64,000 bases of DNA, taken from NCBI RefSeq assembly GCF_024298765.1, contig NZ_CP101210.1; one strand, given 5' to 3'. This document shows, piece by piece, positions 6,242 through 22,897 of this stretch (within the stretch, counting starts at the first letter, position 1; every line of letters starts with the position of its first letter). This stretch comes from Escherichia coli (lineage in GTDB: Bacteria > Pseudomonadota > Gammaproteobacteria > Enterobacterales > Enterobacteriaceae). The position numbers were made by a program, and so were the translations under genes. Below the pieces are notes generated by a model that was not told the origin of the DNA, searched no databases, and saw nothing but the letters and a program-made list of their open reading frames with translations.

Positions 6242-6964
6242 CTAAACGATGCGGCAGGCGTCGGCTTCCCAGCGGTAACCGACGCCATAAACGGCGCGGA
6301 TAAATGACTGTTCGGCGTCGAGAGATTCCAGCTTGCGGCGCAGGTTTTTAATGTGGCTGTCGATGGTGCGGTCGGTTACTACGCGGTAGTCGTCATAAAG
6401 ATGATTGAGCAATTGCTCGCGGGAGAACACTTTTCCTGGTTCGTGAGAGAGCGTTTTCAGCAGACGAAATTCCGCAGGCGTCAGGTCAAGCATTTTACCG
6501 CGCCATGAAGCCTGAAAACGACCTTCGTCGATAATCAACGGGCTTTCAGCATCCTGTTGCTGCAACTCGCGCTGCGGTTTGCAACGGCGCAAAATGGTTT
6601 TGACGCGCGCTACCACTTCCCGTGGGCTGTACGGCTTACAGATATAATCATCTGCGCCAATCTCCAGCCCCAGCAGGCGATCGATCTCTTCGATTTTTGC
6701 CGTCACCATCACGATCGGAATGTCAGAAAAACGACGAATTTCCCGGCACAGCGTCAGGCCATCGGTGCCAGGGAGCATCAGATCTAACAGGATCAGATCC
6801 GGTGGTGTCTGGCGCACATACGGCAGTACCTGATCGCCGTGGCTGATAAGCGTCGGCGCATAGCTCGCAGCACGCAGATAATCAATGAGCAACTGCCCCA
6901 GCTTCGGTTCATCTTCCACGATCAAAATACGCGGTGTGTTTTCGTCGATTGGTAACTCGGTCAT
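6242..6964 (-). CDS. baeR: two-component response regulator BaeR (OmpR family)
   Basis: 240 aa; receiver domain (ILIVEDEP...[11 protein letters not shown]) plus winged-helix C-terminus; overlaps baeS stop. Confidence 0.9.
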
Positions 6965-8364
6965 ACTTCTCTCTGTAAATCCCGTTCCAGCGGTAACTCT
7001 ACTGTAATGCTTACCCCGCCAAAAGGCGAATGGGCAGCAATAATGCGACCATTATGTGCTTCAACAATGTTCAGGCAAATCGCCAGCCCCAGCCCGGAAC
7101 CGCCGCTGGCACGGTTGCGGGAACCTTCGGTGCGATAAAAACGTTCAAACAATTTTTGTAGCTGATCGTCACTGACACCTGGCGCACTGTCGGCAAAGGT
7201 CAGTCGCACCGTTTTGTCGCGCTGCCCGGCAGAGATTTGCAGGCTGCCGCCGCTGTCAGTGTAGCGCAGGCTGTTTTCCAGTAAGTTATTGAATAACTGC
7301 ATTAAACGGTCGCGATCGCCAAATACGGTAATACTGTCTGGCAGGGAAAATTGCAGTTTCAGGCCACGACTGGCGAATCGTTCGCGAAATGCGCCGCCCG
7401 CCACTTCCAGCAGTGGGATCAAATCTACCGGTGCTTTTTGATAGGCGAGAGCGCCTTCATCAGACATCGACAACTGATGGAGATCGTCAACCAGTTTGGT
7501 CAGTGTACCGACCTCCGCCTGTAAAGACGCCACCGTCTCCGGCGTGAATTTACGCACGCCATCCTGAATGGCTTCCAGTTCACCGCGCAGCACCGCTAAT
7601 GGCGTACGCAGTTCGTGAGAAATATCGGCCATAAAATCGCGCCGCATTTGCTGGTTTTTCTCCAGTGTGCTGGCAAGCTGGTTGAAGTCTTGCGCCAGTT
7701 TGCCCAGTTCATCTTCACTGGTGGGCGTTACGCGGGTAGTGAAATCGCCCGCCGCCAGTTTGTGCGTGCCATCGACAAGTCGTTTTACCGGTGCCAGTAA
7801 ACCGCGCGCCAGCAGAAAAGTGGCAAGTGCCGCGAGTAACGTTGCCAGGGCGACAATCAACCAGCTGGTTTGCCGCTGTTGTTTATCGAAATTGATATCA
7901 GTATTGCGCGTTAACCGCTCAACGGGGGAGGCGATCACCGCGCCCACTTCCGCACCGTTGACCAGAATGGGTCGCCGTGTACCGTCAGGTGGAATCGGCG
8001 CTCGTGGACCAACCAGCACTTTGTTGTTTTGATCAACCACCCAGAACTGGGTACGCCAGCCGTGCGGTGGCATACCCGGGCCGGGTTTATCTTCCGAATT
8101 ATCGTGTTCAAATGAACGCAGGATCTGAAAGACAAAGCGATCATTGTTGCGCAGGAAGCGCCAGTTGCCATGCTGCGCATACTGCTCGCCAAGCGCATCA
8201 CTTAACAGTTGTAATCGCTGTTCATTACCATGCTTGATGTAATCAATAAAGCCACGCTCAAAACTGATACGCACCGCCCAGTGCATACTGATCAGCAAGA
8301 CAATGCAGGTGGCGAAAATCGCCAGAAACAGTTTGCCGGTAATACCAGGTCGCCAGAACTTCAT
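6961..8364 (-). CDS. baeS: envelope-stress sensor histidine kinase BaeS
   Basis: 467 aa; two TM segments, HAMP, H-box ([11 protein letters not shown]), ATPase G-boxes. Confidence 0.9.
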
Positions 8365-9776
8365 TGCGCGCTCCTTTTTCGCCGCGAAATAGCTACATTT
8401 TGATGCGTATCGTTCGGCACTCTGGCAAAGATGAACGCCGGAAGGGCGATGATAAACGCCATGCTAAGCCAGGTGTACATAAAGACGGTTTGTGTGGTGC
8501 CGCTGTCGACGCTGACATGCTGCGAACCAAAAAGTCCCAGCAACAGCCCGGCGATGGTGACGCCGATACTCATCGACAATTGCATAATCATCGACAGCAG
8601 GCTGTTTCCGCTGCTCGCCAGATTGTCCGGGAGATCTTTCAGCGTCAGGGTGTTCATGGAGGAGAAACGCGTCGAGTTGACCATCCCTTGTAAAAACAGG
8701 ACGAACGGCAAAACGTAGTACCAGCCCAGCAGAGCGGTAGTCATAAACAACAGGGTGACCAGCGACAGACCCAGCGTGGTCGCTACCAGTACCCGACGAT
8801 AACCAAAGCGATTCACCACCTGTACCACAATTCGCTTCATTCCCATGCTGCCAAGCACCATCGGGATCATCATCAGTCCGGCATGAAACGGCGAGAAACC
8901 GAGGCCAATTTGCAGGAAAACCGGTGTCATAAAGGGCAACATGCCACTGCCAATACGTCCGGCAAAGCTCCCCGCCAGGCCCAGCGAAAAGGTACGAGTA
9001 CGGAACAGTTTCAGACTGAACAGGGCACGGTTGTTATTTCTGGCGTGCAGCAGATAAAGCACCAGTGCCACCACGCCAACTGCGACCAGGCCTGCAATCG
9101 TCAGCGGCGATAAACCTGTACCTTTACTGCCGTCCAGCGCCAGGGTTAATACCGCCATGCCAACCGCCAGCAATAAAAATCCGGAGAGATCAAAGCGCCG
9201 CGTCTGCATGGTGTAGTTTGGCATTAACAGCAATGTGGCGATCGCACCGATAATCCCCACCGGAATGTTGATCAAAAAGATACAGTGCCACGATGCGTAC
9301 TCCACCAGCAGACCGCCGAGCGCCGGACCGAGCAGCGGACCGACCTGACCGGGTAACGTGACAAAGGTCATCGCCGCCATATATTGCTCGCGCGGTACGA
9401 TTTTCATCACCGTCAATCTGCCGACCGGCACCATCATCGCGCCGCCAACGCCCTGTAACGCGCGTGCCAGCAACAGTTCGTTCAGCGTGCCGGAAAGCGC
9501 GCAAAACAGTGAACCGAGAGTAAACAGCACGATGGCGGTAAAGAAAATATTGCGCACGCCGACTTTGTCCGCCAGCCAGCCGCTGGCGGGCAGCATCACC
9601 GCCACGGTCAGCACATAAGAGACAATGACCATGTGCATATGCAACGGACTTTCCCCGAGGCTTTGCGCCATTGAGGGAAGGGCGGTGTTTACGATGGTGG
9701 TGTCCAGCGACTGCATAAAGAAGCCGAAAGCCACAATCCACAATTGCCAACGGGTGCTGTCGGGAAGATCTGTCAT
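8361..9776 (-). CDS. mdtD: MFS transporter MdtD
   Basis: 471 aa, 14-TM MFS-like; position between mdtC and baeS. Confidence 0.9.
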
Positions 9777-12700
9777 TTACTCGGTTACCGTTTGTTTAGG
9801 TTTACGCGAAAAACGCAGCCGCAGACGGTCGAAAAAGAGATACACCACCGGCGTGGTATACAGCGTAAGGAGCTGGCTCATTACCAGTCCGCCGACAATG
9901 GTGATCCCCAGGGGTTGCCGCAGCTCCGAGCCGTCGCCGCCCGACAATACCAGCGGCAGCGCACCAAACAGCGCCGCCAGGGTAGTCATCATAATCGGGC
10001 GAAAACGCAGCAGACAGGCCTGGAAAATAGCTTCCTGCGGCGTCAGGTTACCGTGCCGTTGGGCTTCAAGCGCAAAATCGACCATCATAATGGCGTTTTT
10101 CTTCACGATGCCGATTAATAGCATGATCCCTATCAGGGCGATTAGGCTGAACGGGGCATTGAACAGCTCCAGCGCCAACAGCGCTCCAACGCCCGCCGAG
10201 GGCAGGGTGGAGAGAATCGTCAGCGGATGTACGTAACTCTCGTAAAGGATACCCAGCACGATATACACCGTGGCGATGGCGGCGATAATCAGGATCACCT
10301 GCGAGTTCATCGTCTCCTGGAACACCTGCGCCGTGCCGGCAAAACTGCCGCGCACCGTCGAAGGCACACCAAGCTGGGTCATTGCGCGATCGATCGCCGC
10401 ACTGGCGTCCGAGAGCGATTTTCCGGTCGGCAGGTTAAACGAAATGGTCGAGGCCGCCGATAATCCCTGATGATTCACCGATAGTGGGGCATTCGCCGGT
10501 TGCCATTTAGCGAAATACGACAGCGGGATCGCTTTGCCTTCGTTATTGATAACGAACATTTTTTCCAGCGCACTGATGTCCTGGGTATAGCGCGGATCCA
10601 CTTCCATCACCACTTTATACTGGTTCATCGGCTGGTAAATGGTCGAGATTTGCCGCTGACCGAAGGCGTTATTTAACAGACTGTTGGCGGCTTGTACGTC
10701 GATTCCCAGCCGTGCCATGGTGTCGCGGTCGTAAACCAGATTCATCTCCGCGCCGTTATCCTGCTGATCGGAGTTCACGTCCGCCAGTTCCGGCAACGTC
10801 GCCAGTTTTTTGCGGATTTTCGGCTCCCATTCTCGCAGTGCCGCCAGGTCGTCGGATAACAACGTGTACTGGTAGCTGGCGTTCGACTGACGCCCACCAA
10901 CGCGAATATCCTGTACCGCCATCAGGAACAGATTCGCCCCCGGTTCTTTCGCCAGTTTTACGCGCAGACGGTCGATAATTTGCTGCGCCGTTTCGCTGCG
11001 TTCGTCGCGTGGCTTGAGGGTGATAAACATCATCCCGCTGTTCACTCGCGAACCGCCTGTAAAGCCGGTGACATTATCCACTGCCGGATCGTCACGGATA
11101 ATTTTCATGAAATCCTGCAACTTGCCGCGCATCGCCTGAAACGAAATACTCTGATCCGCCTGTATCCCGCCCATCAACACGCCGGTGTCCTGCTCCGGGA
11201 AGAAGGTTTTCGGGATCGAGATATATAGCCAGATATTCAAAGCAATGGTGCCAAGCAGCACCACGCCCACCAGACGGGTATGATTGAGCACCCATTTCAG
11301 TGACTTACCATAGCCTTGTTGCAGGGCTACCAACATGCGACCAAAACCACGCAGTCGCTTTTGCTCGCGCGGCTTGCTGGCTTTCAGCATCCAGCCACAC
11401 ATCATTGGCGTTAATGTCAGAGAAACCAGCAACGAAATACCAATGGCGACAGAAAGCGTCACGGCAAACTCGCGTAACAGTCGGCCCGGCAATCCGCCCA
11501 TCAACAGCAGCGGCAGGAACACCGCCACCAGTGACAGACTCATCGACAGCACCGTAAAGCCGACTTCGCGAGTACCTTGCAGTGCGGCTTGCAACGGTTT
11601 CATTCCCGCTTCCAGATGACGTGCAATGTTTTCCAGCACCACGATGGCGTCATCCACCACGAAACCAGTAGCAATGGTGAGCGCCATCAGCGAAAGATTA
11701 TTGAGACTGAATCCGCAAAGGTACATCGCCGCAAACGTACCAATCAGCGAAACCGGCACCGCAACGGCGGGAATAATAGTGGCGCGACCCGAGCGCAGGA
11801 ATAAAAAGACCACCAGAATCACCAGCGCCACCGAGATAATCAGCGTTTGTTCGACTTCCTCCAGCGAGGCGCGAATGGTGGGGGAGCGATCCTGGGCAAT
11901 TTGCAGATCAATCGCCGCCGGAATGGTCTCCTGCAACTCCGGTAATTTTGCCCGGATGCTGTCTACCGTCTGGATAATATTGGCTTCCGGCAGCTTGCGG
12001 ATCATCAGCAAAATAGCCGGTTTGGCGTTGGTCATCCCGGCGTTGCGCACATCCTGCACTGAGTCGGTCACCGTCGCCACATCGCCCAGACGAACCGCGC
12101 CGCCGTTGTTGTAGTGAATAATCAGCGGCTGATATTCAGCGGCGGTTTTCAGTTCATCGTTGGTCTGGATCTGCCAGCGGTGAGTGCCATCTTCCAGCGC
12201 CCCCTGCGGTTTACGCACGTTGGCATTGCTGATGGCAGTGCGTACGTCGTCCAGCGACACGCCCTGATTAAACAGCGCCTGCGGGTTCAGCCCGACGCGC
12301 ACGGCGGGCAGCGAGCTGCCGCCGACATCGACATCACCGACACCGTCGATTTGCGAAATCGTCGGAGCCAGCTGCGTCGAGGCGAAATCGTACAGTTCAC
12401 CCTGCGAATAAGTATCGGATGTCAGCGTGAGGATCATAATTGGCGCATCCGACGGGTTCGCTTTGCGATAGGTCGGGCGGCTGGGCATCCCACTGGGCAG
12501 CAAACTTTGTGCAGCGTTGATCGCCGCCTGCACATCACGCGCTGCGCCGTTGATATCCCGGTCAAAATCAAACTGCAAAATAATACGCGTGCTGCCGAGC
12601 GAACTGCTGGAGGTCATTTCACTGACTCCGGCAATGCGCCCAAGTGAGCGCTCCAGCGGCGTGGCAACGGAAGACGCCATTGTTTCTGGTGACGCACCGG

Positions 12701-12854
12701 GCAGCGAGGCGCTGACCATAATCACCGGAAAATCGACCTGCGGCAGCGGGGCGACCGGCAGCATACGGAAGCCCAGTATGCCGCACAGGGTAATGGCAAC
12801 CGACAGTAAAATCGTCGCCACCGGACGGTAAATGAAGAGGGCAAAAAACTTCAC
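9777..12854 (-). CDS. mdtC: RND multidrug efflux pump subunit MdtC
   Basis: 1025 aa RND permease; operon position. Confidence 0.9.
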
Positions 12855-15800
12855 TTACGCCTCCTCTTCATGACGGGCAAAGCGGCTTTTGGTCCACAAT
12901 GCCAGGCGGTCGAACAGCAGATAAATCACCGGCGTGGTGAACAGCGTCAGCACCTGGCTGACAATCAGGCCGCCGACCATGCCGATACCTAACGGACGAC
13001 GCAGTTCCGCGCCGACCCCGGTACTCAACATCAGCGGCAGCGCGCCAAGCAGAGCCGCCAGGGTGGTCATCAGGATCGGACGAAAACGCAACAGACAAGC
13101 CTGGTAGATTGCATCGCGCGGCGACATGCCTTGCTCGCGCTCAGCAGCCAGCGCGAAGTCGATCATCATGATGGCGTTCTTCTTCACGATACCGATCAGC
13201 AAAATAATGCCGATAATCGCAATCACATCCAGTTCGCTACCGGCAATCATTAACGCCAGCAGGGCGCCAACACCTGCCGTGGGTAGCGTCGAGAGAATGG
13301 TGATCGGGTGAATAAAGCTCTCGTACAGAATGCCGAGCACGATATACATCGCCACCACCGCCGCGACAATCAGCCAGACAGTGCTGCCCAGCGCCGACTG
13401 GAAGGCGAGGGTGCTGCCCTGGAACTGCGTGGTGATATCCACCGGCAGATTCAGCGTCTTTTCGGTGTCCATAATCGCCTGCACCGCATCGCCCAGCGAA
13501 TAGTTATCTGGCACGTTAAAAGAGATGGTCGTTACCGGGAACTGATCCAGATGGTTGATGGAAAGCGGCGCAAAACGCTGTTCAACTTTGGCAATTGAGC
13601 TTAACGGCACCACGCCGCCGTCGCTGCTGGTCAGGCGAATGGTATCTAGCGCCGCAAGCCCTGGGGTATTTTCGGTGTTGTGCTCCAGCACCACGCGATA
13701 CTGGTTGGCCTGAGTATAAATAGTGGAAATCAGCCGCTGACCAAACGCGTTGTACAGGGCGTTATCGACATCCGCCATGCTGATCCCCAGACGGCTGGCG
13801 CTGTCGCGATCAACATTGACATACGCCACCAGCCCTTTGTCCTGCCAGTCGCTGGAGACATCAGAAAGCTGTGGCAGTTGCTGGAGTTTTTCCATCAACT
13901 GTGGCACCCAGGTACTGAGCGCATCCAGTGACGTGGCCTGCAAGGTAAACTGGTACTGGGTGCGGCTGACCTGAGTATCAATAGTCAGATCCTGCGTTGG
14001 TTGCAGGAAGAGATCGACGCCCGGCACTTTATCTACCGCCGTTTGCAGACGGGCGATGACTTTTTGCACCCGATCATCACGTTCATCCAACGGTTTGAGG
14101 TTGATTTGTAAACGTGCACTGTTCAGCGACGGGTTAGTGCCATCAACGCCAACAAATGAGGTCAGGCTTTGCACTGCCGGATCCTGCAAAATCACGTCCG
14201 CGACCTGGCGTTGTCGCTGGGCCATATTGGCAAAGGAGCTGGATTGCGGTGCCTGCAAAGTGCCCTGAATAATGCCATTGTCCTGTACCGGGAAGAAACC
14301 TTTCGGAATGAACACCCACAGCAGCACGCTAAGCAGCAGCGTGCTGAGTGCCACGCTTAAGGTCAGCCACGGATGATTCAGCACTTTCGCCAGTCCACGA
14401 CCATAGGCGGCGATTATCCTGTCGAACATTTTTTCCGAGGCACGGGAGAAGCGGTTCTGTTTACGCAACGACTCCTGGCTGAGCATCCGCGCGCACATCA
14501 TCGGTGTCAGGGTCAGCGACACCACCGCTGAGATCAAAATCGCTACCGCCAGGGTAATAGCAAATTCGCGGAACAGCCGCCCGACGATATCGCCCATAAA
14601 CAGCAGTGGGATCAACACCGCAATCAGTGAGAAGGTCAGCGAGATAATGGTAAAGCCGATTTCACCTGCGCCCTTGAGCGCCGCCGCCAACGGTTTTTCG
14701 CCTTTTTCGATATAGCGGGAAATGTTTTCGATCACCACGATGGCGTCATCGACCACGAATCCGGTGGCGATAGTTAACGCCATCAGTGTCAGGTTATTGA
14801 TTGAAAAATCGAGAAACACCATAACCGCGAAAGTGCCGATTAACGACAGCGGTACAGCAACACCGGGAATGATGGTCGCCGGAATATTGCGCAAAAACAG
14901 GTAGATAATCATGACTACCAGCGCGATAGCCATCATCAATTCAAACTGAGTATCATCGACGGATGCGCGGATATTGGTGGTGCGATCGGAAAGCACTGTC
15001 ACCTTCACCGATTTCGGCAGACTCTCGGTGAGCTGTGGCAGCATCTGCCGGATGCTGTCGGCGGTGGAGATAATGTTAGCACCGGGCTGGCGCTGAACAT
15101 TCATCACAATGGCCTGTTCTTTGTTCGCCCACGCGCCGAGCCAGCTGTTTTCTGCACCTTGCTCTACAGTTGCGACATCGCCCAGACGAATTGGCGCGCC
15201 GTTCTGGTAGGCGATGATTAGCTGGCGATACTCTTCGGCGGATTGCATCTGGTCGTTCGCGGAAAGCGTGACCGCACGGGAAGGGCCGTCGAGGCTACCT
15301 TTTGCCGAGTTAACGTTAGCGCCGGTAATGGCGGTGCGCACGGTTTCGCTGGTCAGGCCGAGGGCGGCAATCGCCTGAGCGTTAAGTTTGACGCGAACAG
15401 CCGGACGCTGACCGCCGGAAAGCGTCACCAGGCCGACGCCGGAAATCTGCGAGATTTTCTGCGCGACGCGGGTTTCCACCATATCTTCCACTTGCGTCAT
15501 CGGCATGGCGGTTGAGGTGACGGCGAGCGTCATGATCGGCGGATCTGCCGGGTTCACTTTGCTGTAAACCGGCGGGTTAGGCAGATCGCTCGGCAACAAG
15601 TTGGTCGCAGCGTTAATCGCGGCCTGCACTTCCTGCTCGGCGACATCGAGCGGTAATGTTAGCTGGAACTGCAAAGTGATAACTGACGCACCGCCGGAAC
15701 TTTGCGACGACATCTGTTTCAGGCCAGACATCTGCCCGAACTGGCGTTCTAGCGGCGCGGTAACGGCAGAGGTCATGACATCCGGGCTGGCACCTGGGTA

Positions 15801-15977
15801 GAGCGTGACCACCTGAATGGTCGGATAGTCCACTTCCGGCAGCGCCGAAACGGGCAGGGCGCGATAACCGATAATCCCGGCGAGTAAGATCGCCACCATC
15901 AGCAGCGTGGTGGCCACAGGACGCATAATAAACAGGCGCGACGGGCCGCCTGTGCTGCTCGGGGGTAACACCTGCAT
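12855..15977 (-). CDS. mdtB: RND multidrug efflux pump subunit MdtB
   Basis: 1040 aa RND permease; start overlaps mdtA stop. Confidence 0.9.
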
Positions 15978-17224
15978 CAGGAGAGTGCTCCTTTTTTCGC
16001 GTATTCGCGGCTGGTGGCTTTCTCTTCCGGAGTAGTGGCGCTCTGGGCTTCCACCACTTCCACTTTCGCCCCTTCGGTCAGGCGATCAATGCCGTCTGTC
16101 ACCACGCGATCGCCCGCAGAAATACCTGCACGGATCACCACTTTCTGACTGTCCTGAATGCCCGGCGTCACCAGATGTTTGCTGACCTTGTTTTCGCTAT
16201 TCAGCACCCAGACAAAATGGCCTTCATTGCCCATTTGCAGGGCGGCTGTTGGGATCACTACGGCGTTTTGTTCGGTGTCGACTAACATGCGCGCGTTAAC
16301 AAACTGATTGGGAAACAGCGCATCATCCTGATTATTAAAGCGTGCTTTCACTTTAATCGTACCGGTAGTGGCATCGATTTGGTTATCTAGACTTAACAGC
16401 GTGCCTTCACTTAATTTCTTCGAGTTGGTGCGATCCCAGGCTTCTACCACCAGCGGTTTTCCGGCTTTCTGCGCCTGCACTACGGTAGCGATATCGCTTT
16501 CCGGCAGGGTAAAGACTAAATCGATAGGATGCGTCTGGGTGATCACCACGATCCCGGTGGTATCACCACTGGAGATTTGGTTACCAACATCAACCTGCTT
16601 GAGACCAACGCGACCATCGACTGGTGCGGTAATCCGGCTCCAGTCGAGTTGCAGCTGCGCGCTGGCAACGCTTGCTTCATCAGCCTTAATGGTGCCTTCG
16701 GTTTCACTGACCAGCGCCTGTTGGGCATCCAGCTCCTGGCGGGAAACGAGATTGGTTTTTGCCAGTTGTTGATAACGCGCCAGGTCACGGCGGGCGTTGG
16801 CAAGCGTGGCTTTATCTTTTGCCAGTTGGCCCTGGGCTTGTGCTAATGCAACTTTGAACTGGCTGGGGTCAATTTCTGCCAGTAAATCGCCTGCTTTGAC
16901 CTGCTGGCCTTCCTGGAAATGTAACGCTATCAGTTGGCCGTCCACGCGGCTGCGCACCGTAACGGTATTAGCGGCGGTAATGGTGCCAAGCCCGGTGAGG
17001 TAACGCGGAACTGCCTGTTCTACGGCGGTCGCCGCCTGAACCGGGGCTAATGGGCCGGAACGCATACCACGTCGACCACCCGCTGGCGATTGCTGCGCTT
17101 GTTTCGTCGCCCCTGGGGCTGCACTCCGGGAGTCATTGCGGCCTTGCCAGAACCAGAATGCGGCGATGGCGGCGATAACCACCACGATTACGATTACCCA
17201 ACGGGATTTATAACTACCTTTCAT
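15977..17224 (-). CDS. mdtA: RND efflux membrane-fusion (periplasmic adaptor) protein MdtA
   Basis: 415 aa from internal Met ([16 protein letters not shown]...); the ORF-track start at 17371 is an upstream extension. Confidence 0.85.
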
Positions 17225-17277
17225 CGTTAAGAGTTTCTCTTCCTGAAACGTTTCGCGGAATGATACTAGTGTAGCCA

Positions 17278-17295
17278 GCCAATAAGGGAGAAAAA
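17278..17295 (-). promoter_or_regulatory. putative BaeR-binding box upstream of mdtA
   Basis: Minus-strand sequence TTTTTCTCCCTTATTGGC resembles the recalled BaeR consensus TTTTTCTCCATDATTGGC; about 55 bp upstream of the mdtA start. Confidence 0.5.
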
Positions 17296-17454
17296 TGGAG
17301 GAATTATGAAACACTGTCGGGAATCGTCTGAATGACGGGCACATTTGCGAGCACGCATCCAGTAATAACACAGGAAACTATTTTATCTACGCGTTAGCGA
17401 TAGACTGCTTGCATGGCGAAAGGAGGTAAGCCGCAGATTTCAGCCGGATGCTGA

Positions 17455-17600
17455 AACGGGAAAGCCCCTCCCGAGGAAGGGGCCTTAAATAAGGAAAGGG
17501 TCATGATGAAGCTACTCATCATCGTGGTGCTCTTAGTCATAAGCTTCCCCGCTTACTAAGACTACCAGGGCGGGGGAAACCCCGCTCTACCCTCACTCCT
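17455..17600 (-). ncRNA. putative Sib-type antisense sRNA (antitoxin of the ibs type I TA pair), copy 1; ends approximate
   Basis: Overlaps the small ibs ORF on the opposite strand; minus-strand hairpin GCCCCTTCCTCGGGAGGGGC (17464-17483) followed by a T-rich tract; part of a ~326-bp tandem repeat. Confidence 0.45.
17503..17559 (+). CDS. Ibs-family type I toxin, 18 aa hydrophobic peptide (MMKLLIIVVLLVISFPAY)
   Basis: Short ORF with RBS (aaggaaaggg) read directly from the sequence; absent from the ORF track; matches the Ibs toxin family. Confidence 0.7.
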   Translation: MMKLLIIVVLLVISFPAY

Positions 17601-17847
17601 GAAAGTATGCCTTCACGATAAGATTGTCAATCCGCAGGCTTTGTAGTCTGCGATCCTGCCAGCAAATATTCTTTGCGAGTCGTTACGCAATAATCACAGA
17701 GGAAACTATTTTATTCACGCGTTAGCGATAGACTGCATTCAGGGCGAAAGGAGGTAAGCCGATGATTTCAGCGGGACGCTGAAACGGGAAAGCCTCTCCC
17801 TGTACTGCACCCATTTTGTTGGACGATGAAATGGAATAGCCCCTAAT

Positions 17848-18369
17848 ATGTCAAAGCCAAAATACCCTTTTGAAAAGCGCCTTGAAGTCGTGAATCACTA
17901 CTTCACAACTGATGATGGTTACAGGATCATCTCGGCACGTTTTGGTGTCCCCCGAACCCAGGTCAGGACATGGGTTGCCCTCTATGAAAAACATGGAGAA
18001 AAAGGTTTAATTCCCAAACCTAAAGGCGTTAGTGCTGATCCAGAGTTGCGTATTAAGGTCGTGAAAGCTGTGATCGAGCAGCACATGTCCCTTAATCAGG
18101 CTGCTGCTCACTTTATGCTTGCTGGTAGTGGTTCTGTAGCCAGGTGGCTGAAGGTCTATGAAGAGCGCGGAGAAGCTGGTTTACGCGCGCTCAAGATTGG
18201 CACCAAAAGAAACATTGCAATATCAGTTGATCCAGAAAAAGCGGCATCAGCATTGGAGCTGTCAAAAGACCGACGCATTGAGGATCTTGAAAGGCAAGTT
18301 CGATTTCTTGAAACGCGGCTTGTGTATCTAAAAAAGCTGAAAGCCTTAGCTCATCCCACGAAAAAGTGA
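17848..18369 (+). CDS. insJ: IS150 OrfA (HTH transposase N-terminal protein, 173 aa)
   Basis: 173 aa with HTH; ends at slippery A AAA AAG (18359-18364), the -1 frameshift site to orfB. Confidence 0.85.
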   Translation: MSKPKYPFEKRLEVVNHYFTTDDGYRIISARFGVPRTQVRTWVALYEKHGEKGLIPKPKGVSADPELRIKVVKAVIEQHMSLNQAAAHFMLAGSGSVARWLKVYEERGEAGLRALKIGTKRNIAISVDPEKAASALELSKDRRIEDLERQVRFLETRLVYLKKLKALAHPTKK

Positions 18370-19217
18370 AAGTACTCAACGAGCTAAGGCAGTTTTATCC
18401 TCTTGATGAGCTTCTCAGGGCTGCGGAGATACCGCGCAGTACGTTTTATTACCATCTAAAGGCTCTCAGCAAGCCTGACAAGTATGCGGACGTTAAAAAG
18501 CGTATTGGTGAGATTTATCATGAGAATAGAGGCCGATACGGATACCGTAGGGTAACGCTGTCTCTTCATCGAGAAGGGAAACAGATTAACCATAAAGCTG
18601 TTCAGCGCCTGATGGGAATCCTCTCACTGAAGGCAGCGATTAAGGTCAAGCGATACCGCTCTTACAGAGGAGAGGTAGGGCAAACCGCCCCCAATGTTCT
18701 CCAAAGAGATTTCAAGGCTACGCGGCCAAACGAGAAGTGGGTTACCGATGTTACTGAATTTGCAGTCAATGGGCGCAAGCTGTATTTGTCTCCAGTAATA
18801 GATCTCTTCAACAACGAAGTTATTTCTTACAGCCTTTCGGAAAGACCAGTGATGAACATGGTCGAGAATATGCTCGATCAGGCATTCAAAAAGCTTAATC
18901 CTCACGAGCATCCTGTTCTGCACTCTGACCAGGGATGGCAGTATCGTATGAGAAGATATCAAAATATCCTTAAAGAACATGGTATTAAACAAAGCATGTC
19001 CAGAAAAGGCAATTGTCTGGATAATGCTGTGGTGGAGTGTTTCTTTGGAACCTTAAAGTCGGAGTGTTTTTATCTTGATGAGTTCAGTAATATAAGCGAG
19101 CTGAAGGATGCTGTTACGGAATATATTGAATACTACAACAGCAGAAGAATTAGCCTGAAATTAAAAGGTCTGACTCCAATTGAATATCGGAATCAGACCT
19201 ATATGCCTCGTGTTTAA
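18366..19217 (+). CDS. insK: IS150 OrfB (DDE transposase catalytic domain, 283 aa)
   Basis: 283 aa with DDE integrase-core motifs ([25 protein letters not shown]). Confidence 0.85.
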
Positions 19218-19277
19218 CTGTCCAACTTTTTGGGGTCAGTACACCCGGAGAAGAGGGCTTTTAATAAGGAAAGGGTT

Positions 19278-19337
19278 ATGATGAAGCACGTCATCATACT
19301 GGTGATACTCTTAGTGATTAGCTTCCAGGCTTACTAA
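19278..19337 (+). CDS. Ibs-family type I toxin, 19 aa (MMKHVIILVILLVISFQAY), copy 2
   Basis: Short ORF with RBS immediately past the IS150 right end; paralogue of the peptide at 17503. Confidence 0.65.
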   Translation: MMKHVIILVILLVISFQAY

Positions 19338-19557
19338 GAACACCAGGGGGAGGGGGAAACCTCTCCCTAACCCTCACTCCTGAAATTATGTCACTCCGCC
19401 CTTAGTGTCAATCGACGGCTCTCCGTTCTTGCGAGGCGAATAGCAAAATTTTCTGCGCCGCCGGGCCTAATTCTGAAAGTTTCTTCGTTTGTTCTTATTT
19501 CATTATTGCAGTCGGTATGATACCGGACCTCAATAATTCTCTAAGAAAGGATTTCTT

Positions 19558-21501: not shown

Positions 21502-21535
21502 TTTTTCTCCAGAATCTCTGTGTAGTAAAAGTTAG

Positions 21536-22730
<1,195 letters not shown>

Positions 22731-22897
22731 TTAGCAAAACCTGTGGAAGTGAATCATTATCAGGTTGGAATTGAATTGTATCCTGATGAAATTACATTAT
22801 CATTTTTATTCTTGAGTGGGCTCTTCCCATATAGAAATAATTATAATGGGCAGTGTTATTATTCATTGAAATATAATATTGCTGCCCTTGAAACATT

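Follow-up and report, generated by a model that had tools for sequence, protein, structure and literature searches.

The BaeR operator of mdtABCD-baeSR in an Escherichia coli genome: a known site whose conserved core appears to lie upstream of the 18-nucleotide box

Is the short T-rich sequence in front of mdtA in this E. coli genome the operator of the response regulator BaeR and, if so, do 18 nucleotides make up the whole of the site? A sequence-only reading of the 64,000-nucleotide stretch analysed here (the window) had placed a close match to the BaeR recognition sequence on the minus strand at 17278-17295, about 55 bp upstream of mdtA. Reading of the minus strand bears this placement out. 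The box, TTTTTCTCCCTTATTGGC, occupies exactly 17295..17278 within the context ttcataattcctccaTTTTTCTCCCTTATTGGCtggctacacTAGTATcattccgcgaaacgtttcaggaagagaaactcttaacgATGaaaggt (18-mer capitalised) and covers -71 to -54, counted from the A of the mdtA ATG (17224..17222), which leaves a gap of 53 nt between the box and the start codon. Very probably the site is the BaeR operator already known for mdtABCD-baeSR, at which phosphorylated BaeR (BaeR-P) on tandem repeats would activate the promoter.

The genes downstream are those of the autoregulated operon that had been recognized from the letters alone. Six genes on the minus strand abut or overlap by a few bases, with baeS and baeR last: mdtA (17224..15977, 415 aa, ATG), mdtB (15977..12855), mdtC (12854..9777), mdtD (9776..8361), baeS (8364..6961) and baeR (6964..6242, 240 aa). 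The MdtA and BaeR products pass the NCBIfam equivalog cut-offs (NF008589, 722 bits against a cut-off of 391, and NF007982, 450.5 bits against 380, respectively), and the cognate OmpR/PhoB-type regulator, BaeR, is encoded intact in the window.

The mechanically derived mdtA reading frame is longer, running for 464 aa from a GTG at 17371 (15977-17371), 49 codons beyond the ATG, and the would-be extension contains both the operator and the -10 element. We rejected the GTG start. The ATG at 17224, which is the RefSeq start, is present at the aligned position in 80 of 80 orthologues, and 54 of these carry an in-frame stop between it and the equivalent of the GTG. The extension is therefore not real, and the internal start favoured by the sequence-only reading stands.

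The box agrees at 17 of 18 positions with the published BaeR motif TTTTTCTCCATDATTGGC, which is attributed to Nishino et al. (2005) where it is quoted in PMC3799227, PMC3915751 and PMC11644481. The motif scan that had been proposed was run on both strands of the whole 64 kb window, allowing up to three mismatches, and returned two matches, compared with 0.13 expected from dinucleotide-preserving shuffles. The mdtA box was the best of these and the only one with one mismatch or fewer; by our own base-frequency estimate about 3e-4 one-mismatch matches are expected per window, so that the match far exceeds chance. The second match (17986..18003, three mismatches) falls within orfA, a transposase gene of IS150, and was treated as fortuitous and not as a BaeR site.

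The closeness of the match is nevertheless probably circular. The K-12 boxes are TTTTTCTCCCTTATTGGC at mdtA, TTTTTCTCCATAATTGGC at spy and TTTTTCTCCACGATTGGC at acrD, and their majority consensus is exactly TTTTTCTCCATDATTGGC, from which we infer that the motif was probably derived from these three boxes. Since the mdtA box is apparently one of the three founders of the motif, agreement with it proves little alone.

Observations made on K-12 can, however, be transferred to the window through sequence identity. From 17318 down to the mdtA ATG the window is 100% identical to K-12 MG1655, in which the box lies at 2153945-2153962. Over the wider stretch 17150-17500 the identity is 100% to strain ECCHD184 and 98.3% to K-12, and 5,408 of 5,426 complete E. 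coli genomes carry this stretch. For MG1655, Data Set S2 of Choudhary et al. (PMC7657598) gives two BaeR ChIP-exo peaks upstream of mdtA, which are the two strongest among the BaeR peaks covered here. Placed on the minus strand of the window through the identical K-12 sequence, peak_5 (MG1655 2153931-2153967, S/N 10.96) corresponds to 17309..17273 and peak_6 (2153972-2153998, S/N 14.99) to 17268..17242. The peak_5 interval holds the whole 18-nt box, and the sequence occupied by BaeR in vivo in MG1655 is thus identical to that found here. The box also precedes a gene whose expression depends on BaeR. In the RNA-seq data reported in the same paper, deletion of baeR under ethanol lowered mdtA, mdtB, mdtC, iceT (mdtD) and baeS by log2 3.4-4.6; the value for mdtA was log2 -4.0, about 16-fold lower. 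In addition, BaeR is reported to bind mdtABC promoter fragments in gel shifts in Erwinia (PMC4107485).

With these data at hand we regard as already refuted, and give practically no credence to, the idea that the box resembles the motif merely by chance and has no regulatory role. The region is T-rich, a half-site-like word, TTCATTTTTTC, occurs four times in the window and a three-mismatch match to the motif does arise by chance within IS150. Yet the mdtA box has one mismatch where 0.13 matches are expected even at three or fewer, the identical K-12 site lies within a BaeR ChIP-exo peak upstream of a BaeR-dependent gene (PMC7657598), and the repeats that adjoin the box are kept across about 20 genera.

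The second part of the question, the extent of the operator, was approached by comparing promoters. One genome per species was scanned, which gave 80 mdtA loci (protein identity 78-98%) from about 20 genera, among them Escherichia, Citrobacter, Enterobacter, Klebsiella, Raoultella, Lelliottia, Kluyvera, Buttiauxella, Cedecea and Atlantibacter; the set is confined to the Enterobacteriaceae, without Salmonella and without an outgroup beyond the family. The 140 nt before the ATG were aligned, representing 79 distinct promoters, and identity was measured against the window sequence. For the whole 18-nt box it is 0.98 in Escherichia (five promoters), 0.84 in the Citrobacter group (16) and 0.55 in the other genera (57). 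The 5' TTTTTC of the box (17295..17290) gives 1.00, 0.94 and 0.93 for the same three groups, and the 3' 12 nt, TCCCTTATTGGC (17289..17278), 0.97, 0.79 and 0.36; this part is near-unconstrained outside Escherichia and Citrobacter. The corresponding values are 1.00, 0.98 and 0.91 for the block 17311..17290 and 0.96, 0.93 and 0.88 for the -10 region (17275..17259). Judged from this alignment, conservation within the BaeR-protected region appears not to be highest in the 18-mer.

What is deeply conserved is the element TTCATAATTCC-TCCATTTTTCT (17310..17289), which shares only TTTTTC(T) with the 18-nt box. It is a tandem 11-nt repeat, and the conserved core would on this comparison lie one helical turn (about 10 nt) upstream of the 18-mer, overlapping it by 6-7 nt. 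Its upstream half-site, r1 (TTCATAATTCC, 17310..17300, minus strand), shows an identity to the window of at least 0.95 at all positions but 17309 and 17304 in the 57 promoters from outside Escherichia and Citrobacter. The central repeat, r2 (TCCATTTTTCT, 17299..17289, minus strand), follows at a spacing of 11 nt, and a weak third repeat, r3 (TCCCTTATTGG, 17289..17279, minus strand), which forms the core of the 18-nt box, begins 10 nt after the start of r2 and is kept only in Escherichia and Citrobacter. In E. coli r1 and r2 are identical at seven of 11 positions; in the Enterobacter-type promoters of many genera, where r1 is TCCATATTTCC and r2 is TCCATTTTTCC, they are identical at ten of 11. 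There are therefore at least two direct repeats with a phasing of about 10-11 bp, and tandem 11-nt repeats are typical of OmpR/PhoB-type regulators; PMC11644481 describes BaeR as a dimer of this family. The box begins with the last 7 nt of r2, so the 18-mer can be read as this tail of r2 plus r3, a register that would leave out the TCCA/TTCT head of the first half-site.

A half-site matrix was trained on non-Escherichia promoters only, with spy and acrD kept out of the training. Its scores are 16.4 bits for r1 (p = 1.6e-5), 16.8 bits for r2 (p = 7.8e-6) and 2.9 bits for r3. When tandem pairs were sought on both strands of the whole window, r1 with r2 ranked first (33.2 bits) and r2 with r3 second (19.7 bits), the next unrelated site reaching 16.7 bits. 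At K-12 spy the matrix finds TTCTTTTTTTC (11.0 bits) and, 11 nt on, TCCATAATTGG (9.8 bits); at K-12 acrD it finds TCCTTTTTTTC (11.5 bits) and, 11 nt on, TCCACGATTGG (-0.1 bits). TCCATAATTGG in spy and TCCACGATTGG in acrD are the counterparts of r3. The ChIP-exo interval at mdtA is asymmetric. Peak_5 reaches 14 nt upstream of the 18-mer and only 5 nt downstream, beginning at r1, which fits occupancy of r1.

A different account, which we think unlikely, would have the 18-nt box alone as a complete BaeR dimer site, with 17311..17296 conserved for another reason: either as the -10 of an upstream promoter (TTCAGA at 17332..17327, an 18-nt spacer and CATAAT at 17308..17303) or as the site of another regulator, for example CpxR. 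The full 18-mer, including ATTGGC, is common to all three K-12 targets, and the whole spy 18-mer is kept in Salmonella and Citrobacter, although this is a shallow comparison in which the best 120 protein matches taken as spy orthologues came almost entirely from Salmonella, Escherichia and Citrobacter. At mdtA, the low identity of TCCCTTATTGGC is found in 57 promoters that do share the conserved promoter core, which is difficult to reconcile with a complete site confined to the box.

TTCAGA-18-CATAAT is the sole consensus-type sigma-70 site in 17000-17900 and both of its hexamers are conserved, as is TTCAGAC, but such sites occur at chance level (one found, 0.7 expected) and peak_6 lies over TAGTAT instead; we rejected 17332..17303 as the real promoter and retained it only within this alternative account. 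A -10 hexamer does not, moreover, explain why r1 and r2 should be near-identical 11-nt direct repeats, and the ChIP-exo interval begins at r1 (PMC7657598). The -10 of this putative promoter does overlap r1, and the conservation of r1 could partly reflect it. As for CpxR, the literature has it acting on mdtA as well (PMC4846824; PMC6375597), but the ChIP-exo peaks listed for CpxR in PMC7657598 do not include mdtA, and inspection by eye from 17400 to 17225 found no convincing CpxR box of the form GTAAA-N5-GTAAA.

Immediately upstream of the BaeR repeats we observed a second conserved block, CATTCAGACGATTCCCGACAGT (17313-17334, minus strand), which in other genera takes the form of a 10-nt direct repeat, CAGACAATTC-CAGACAGTCT. 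The block coincides with the -35-like hexamer of TTCAGA-18-CATAAT and may be bound by a second regulator. It is unlike GTAAA-N5-GTAAA, though CpxR is reported to act on mdtA.

Returning to the repeats, we put forward tentatively, and at rather less than an even chance, that the textbook 18-nt box is mis-registered. The real BaeR element would then be T(C/T)CAT(A/T)TTTCC, present twice at 17310..17289, and the 18-mer would combine the tail of one half-site with a second half-site that is lineage specific. The MG1655 BaeR ChIP-exo peaks listed in PMC7657598 include none at acrD, and those at spy do not cover its 18-nt box, so occupancy cannot be predicted from the 18-mer alone. Mis-registration, if true, could explain these absent peaks, and genome-wide predictions of the BaeR regulon made from the 18-mer would be systematically off. 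The phylogenetic footprint suggests that the 11-nt tandem half-site should replace the 18-mer in motif scans for BaeR targets.

How would BaeR act from this position? The probable -10 hexamer is TAGTAT (17268..17263, minus strand), and ACTAGTATCATT is conserved at about 100% in the 79 promoters. At 17 nt upstream of TAGTAT the sequence is TCTCCC, with no -35-like hexamer, and a sigma-70 consensus scan returned no complete promoter at TAGTAT. A conserved -10 element without a -35 element is usual where an activator of the OmpR/PhoB type binds at the -35 position. The promoter thus has the appearance of one that depends on an activator, with BaeR in the place of the -35 element, the start site and -10 being assigned here from the sequence. 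The peak_6 interval covers TAGTAT and about 20 nt after it, presumed to be the start region, and we infer that this peak represents RNA polymerase cross-linked along with BaeR. There is a parallel in the spy promoter, where one of the ChIP-exo peaks given in PMC7657598 lies over the core promoter TTGACG...TAATCT. Closer to the gene, the conserved TTTCAGGAAGAG (17247..17236, minus strand) is likely to be the mdtA ribosome-binding region, and TTTCAGGA.GAGA before the ATG is near-invariant in the alignment.

Taken together, the mechanism that we propose is as follows. Envelope stress (indole, Cu/Zn, tungstate or ethanol) would activate the BaeS kinase, which leads to phosphorylation of BaeR. BaeR-P, a winged-helix regulator of the OmpR/PhoB family, would bind head-to-tail to direct repeats 10-11 bp apart, namely r1, r2 and, in Escherichia and Citrobacter, the weaker r3, giving two or three half-sites. 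These repeats are positioned immediately upstream of TAGTAT, where they would occupy the place of the absent -35 element, and the bound regulator would recruit sigma-70 RNA polymerase; both the contact with polymerase and the number of BaeR molecules bound are presumed in this scheme. As the transcript ends with baeS and baeR, this would form a self-amplifying loop of positive autoregulation.

Several other features of the neighbourhood were recorded. An IS150 element (IS3 family, 1,443 bp) occupies 17801-19243 between two Sib/Ibs loci. One of its overlapping reading frames (173 aa) has HTH domains and the other (283 aa) an rve integrase core; the element is flanked by a 3-bp target duplication, and its transposase genes point away from mdtA. 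The element is absent from this place in K-12 and ECCHD184, and the junction is found in 74 of 5,426 complete E. coli genomes. The two SIB_RNA antitoxin genes (Rfam RF00113) lie at 17488-17630 and 19263-19411, scoring 142 and 149.5 bits, respectively, and opposite them, on the plus strand, are Ibs type I toxin reading frames at about 17503-17559 and 19278-19337; these are the sibA/ibsA and sibB/ibsB pair of K-12, split here by IS150. Compared with ECCHD184, an IS5 insertion of 1,195 bp (21536-22730) is present between yegI and yegJ, 35 nt upstream of the yegJ start (21501). It encodes a 326-aa IS5-family transposase (NF033581, 367 bits) and has terminal inverted repeats at 21533-21551 and 22715-22733, and the flanking alignments overlap by 4 bp. 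The dgcE-alkA intergenic region (27183-27207) is 25 nt long, compared with 87 nt in ECCHD184, and may represent a repetitive-element polymorphism.

The feature, the BaeR operator of mdtABCD-baeSR, is already known and does not differ from that of K-12. Its role as the control point through which envelope stress turns on the MdtABC efflux pump and amplifies BaeSR is established in K-12. Since this strain has a sequence identical to that of K-12, nothing new is added to the biology of the window. The upstream-shifted conserved core is a specialist refinement and not a discovery, and the analysis also confirms the annotated start of mdtA.

The closest comparison is with the BaeR box of K-12 mdtA (yegM), which is at the same locus, has the same sequence and distance to mdtA and precedes the same operon. 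The window differs from the K-12 locus in having IS150 about 575 bp upstream of the ATG, outside the promoter.

The spy and acrD boxes are near-identical 18-mers, and in both promoters a T-rich half-site lies 11 nt before the TCCA..ATTGG half-site. Several differences set mdtA apart. Firstly, its box has C where the spy and acrD boxes have the A of a CA core; this substitution, in r3, is the sole mismatch of the mdtA box to TTTTTCTCCATDATTGGC. Secondly, mdtA has the additional strong upstream half-site r1. Thirdly, BaeR occupies the mdtA site in the ChIP-exo data, unlike acrD and the spy box itself (PMC7657598). The placement also differs, in that the mdtA box ends 9 nt before the -10 whereas the spy box is about 48 nt upstream of TTGACG, taken as the -35. 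The listed spy peaks (1825677-1825711 and 1825823-1825843) both miss the exact-consensus box at NC_000913.3 1825764-1825781, and acrD has no listed peak despite its one-mismatch box (PMC7657598).

A second BaeR motif, a direct repeat of TCTNCANAA, is ascribed to Yamamoto et al. (2008) where it is quoted in PMC3799227. Like the mdtA repeats, it is a tandem direct repeat with 11-bp phasing. The spy promoter has three exact copies of TCTNCANAA, two of which begin at 1825847 and 1825836, with a spacing of 11 nt, and these tandem copies overlap the peak at 1825823-1825843 (PMC7657598). The best matches in the mdtA promoter, GTTTCATAA and TCTCCCTTA, have two mismatches each. We set these aside as uninformative, matches with two or fewer mismatches occurring at 1.3% of window positions. 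The similarity of mdtA 17315..17289 to the distal site of spy was likewise rejected as evidence of homology; the ungapped alignment gives 17 of 27 identities, which 9% of shuffles equal and which is not significant (p = 0.09).

In the Pho boxes of PhoB-dependent promoters, a pair of 11-bp direct repeats takes the place of the -35 element and stops about 10 bp short of the -10. PhoB belongs to the same regulator family, and the BaeR of the window scores 216 bits on the PhoB model. The mdtA site is similar to a Pho box in having tandem 11-nt repeats and no -35 element, and with r3 included its repeats stop 10 nt short of the -10. Unlike in Pho boxes, the repeats kept by most genera are r1 and r2 only, which end 20 nt before the -10. 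The half-site differs as well, being T(C/T)CAT.TTTCC at mdtA compared with CTGTCAT for PhoB. The resemblance to a Pho box concerns the way in which the site works and not family membership.
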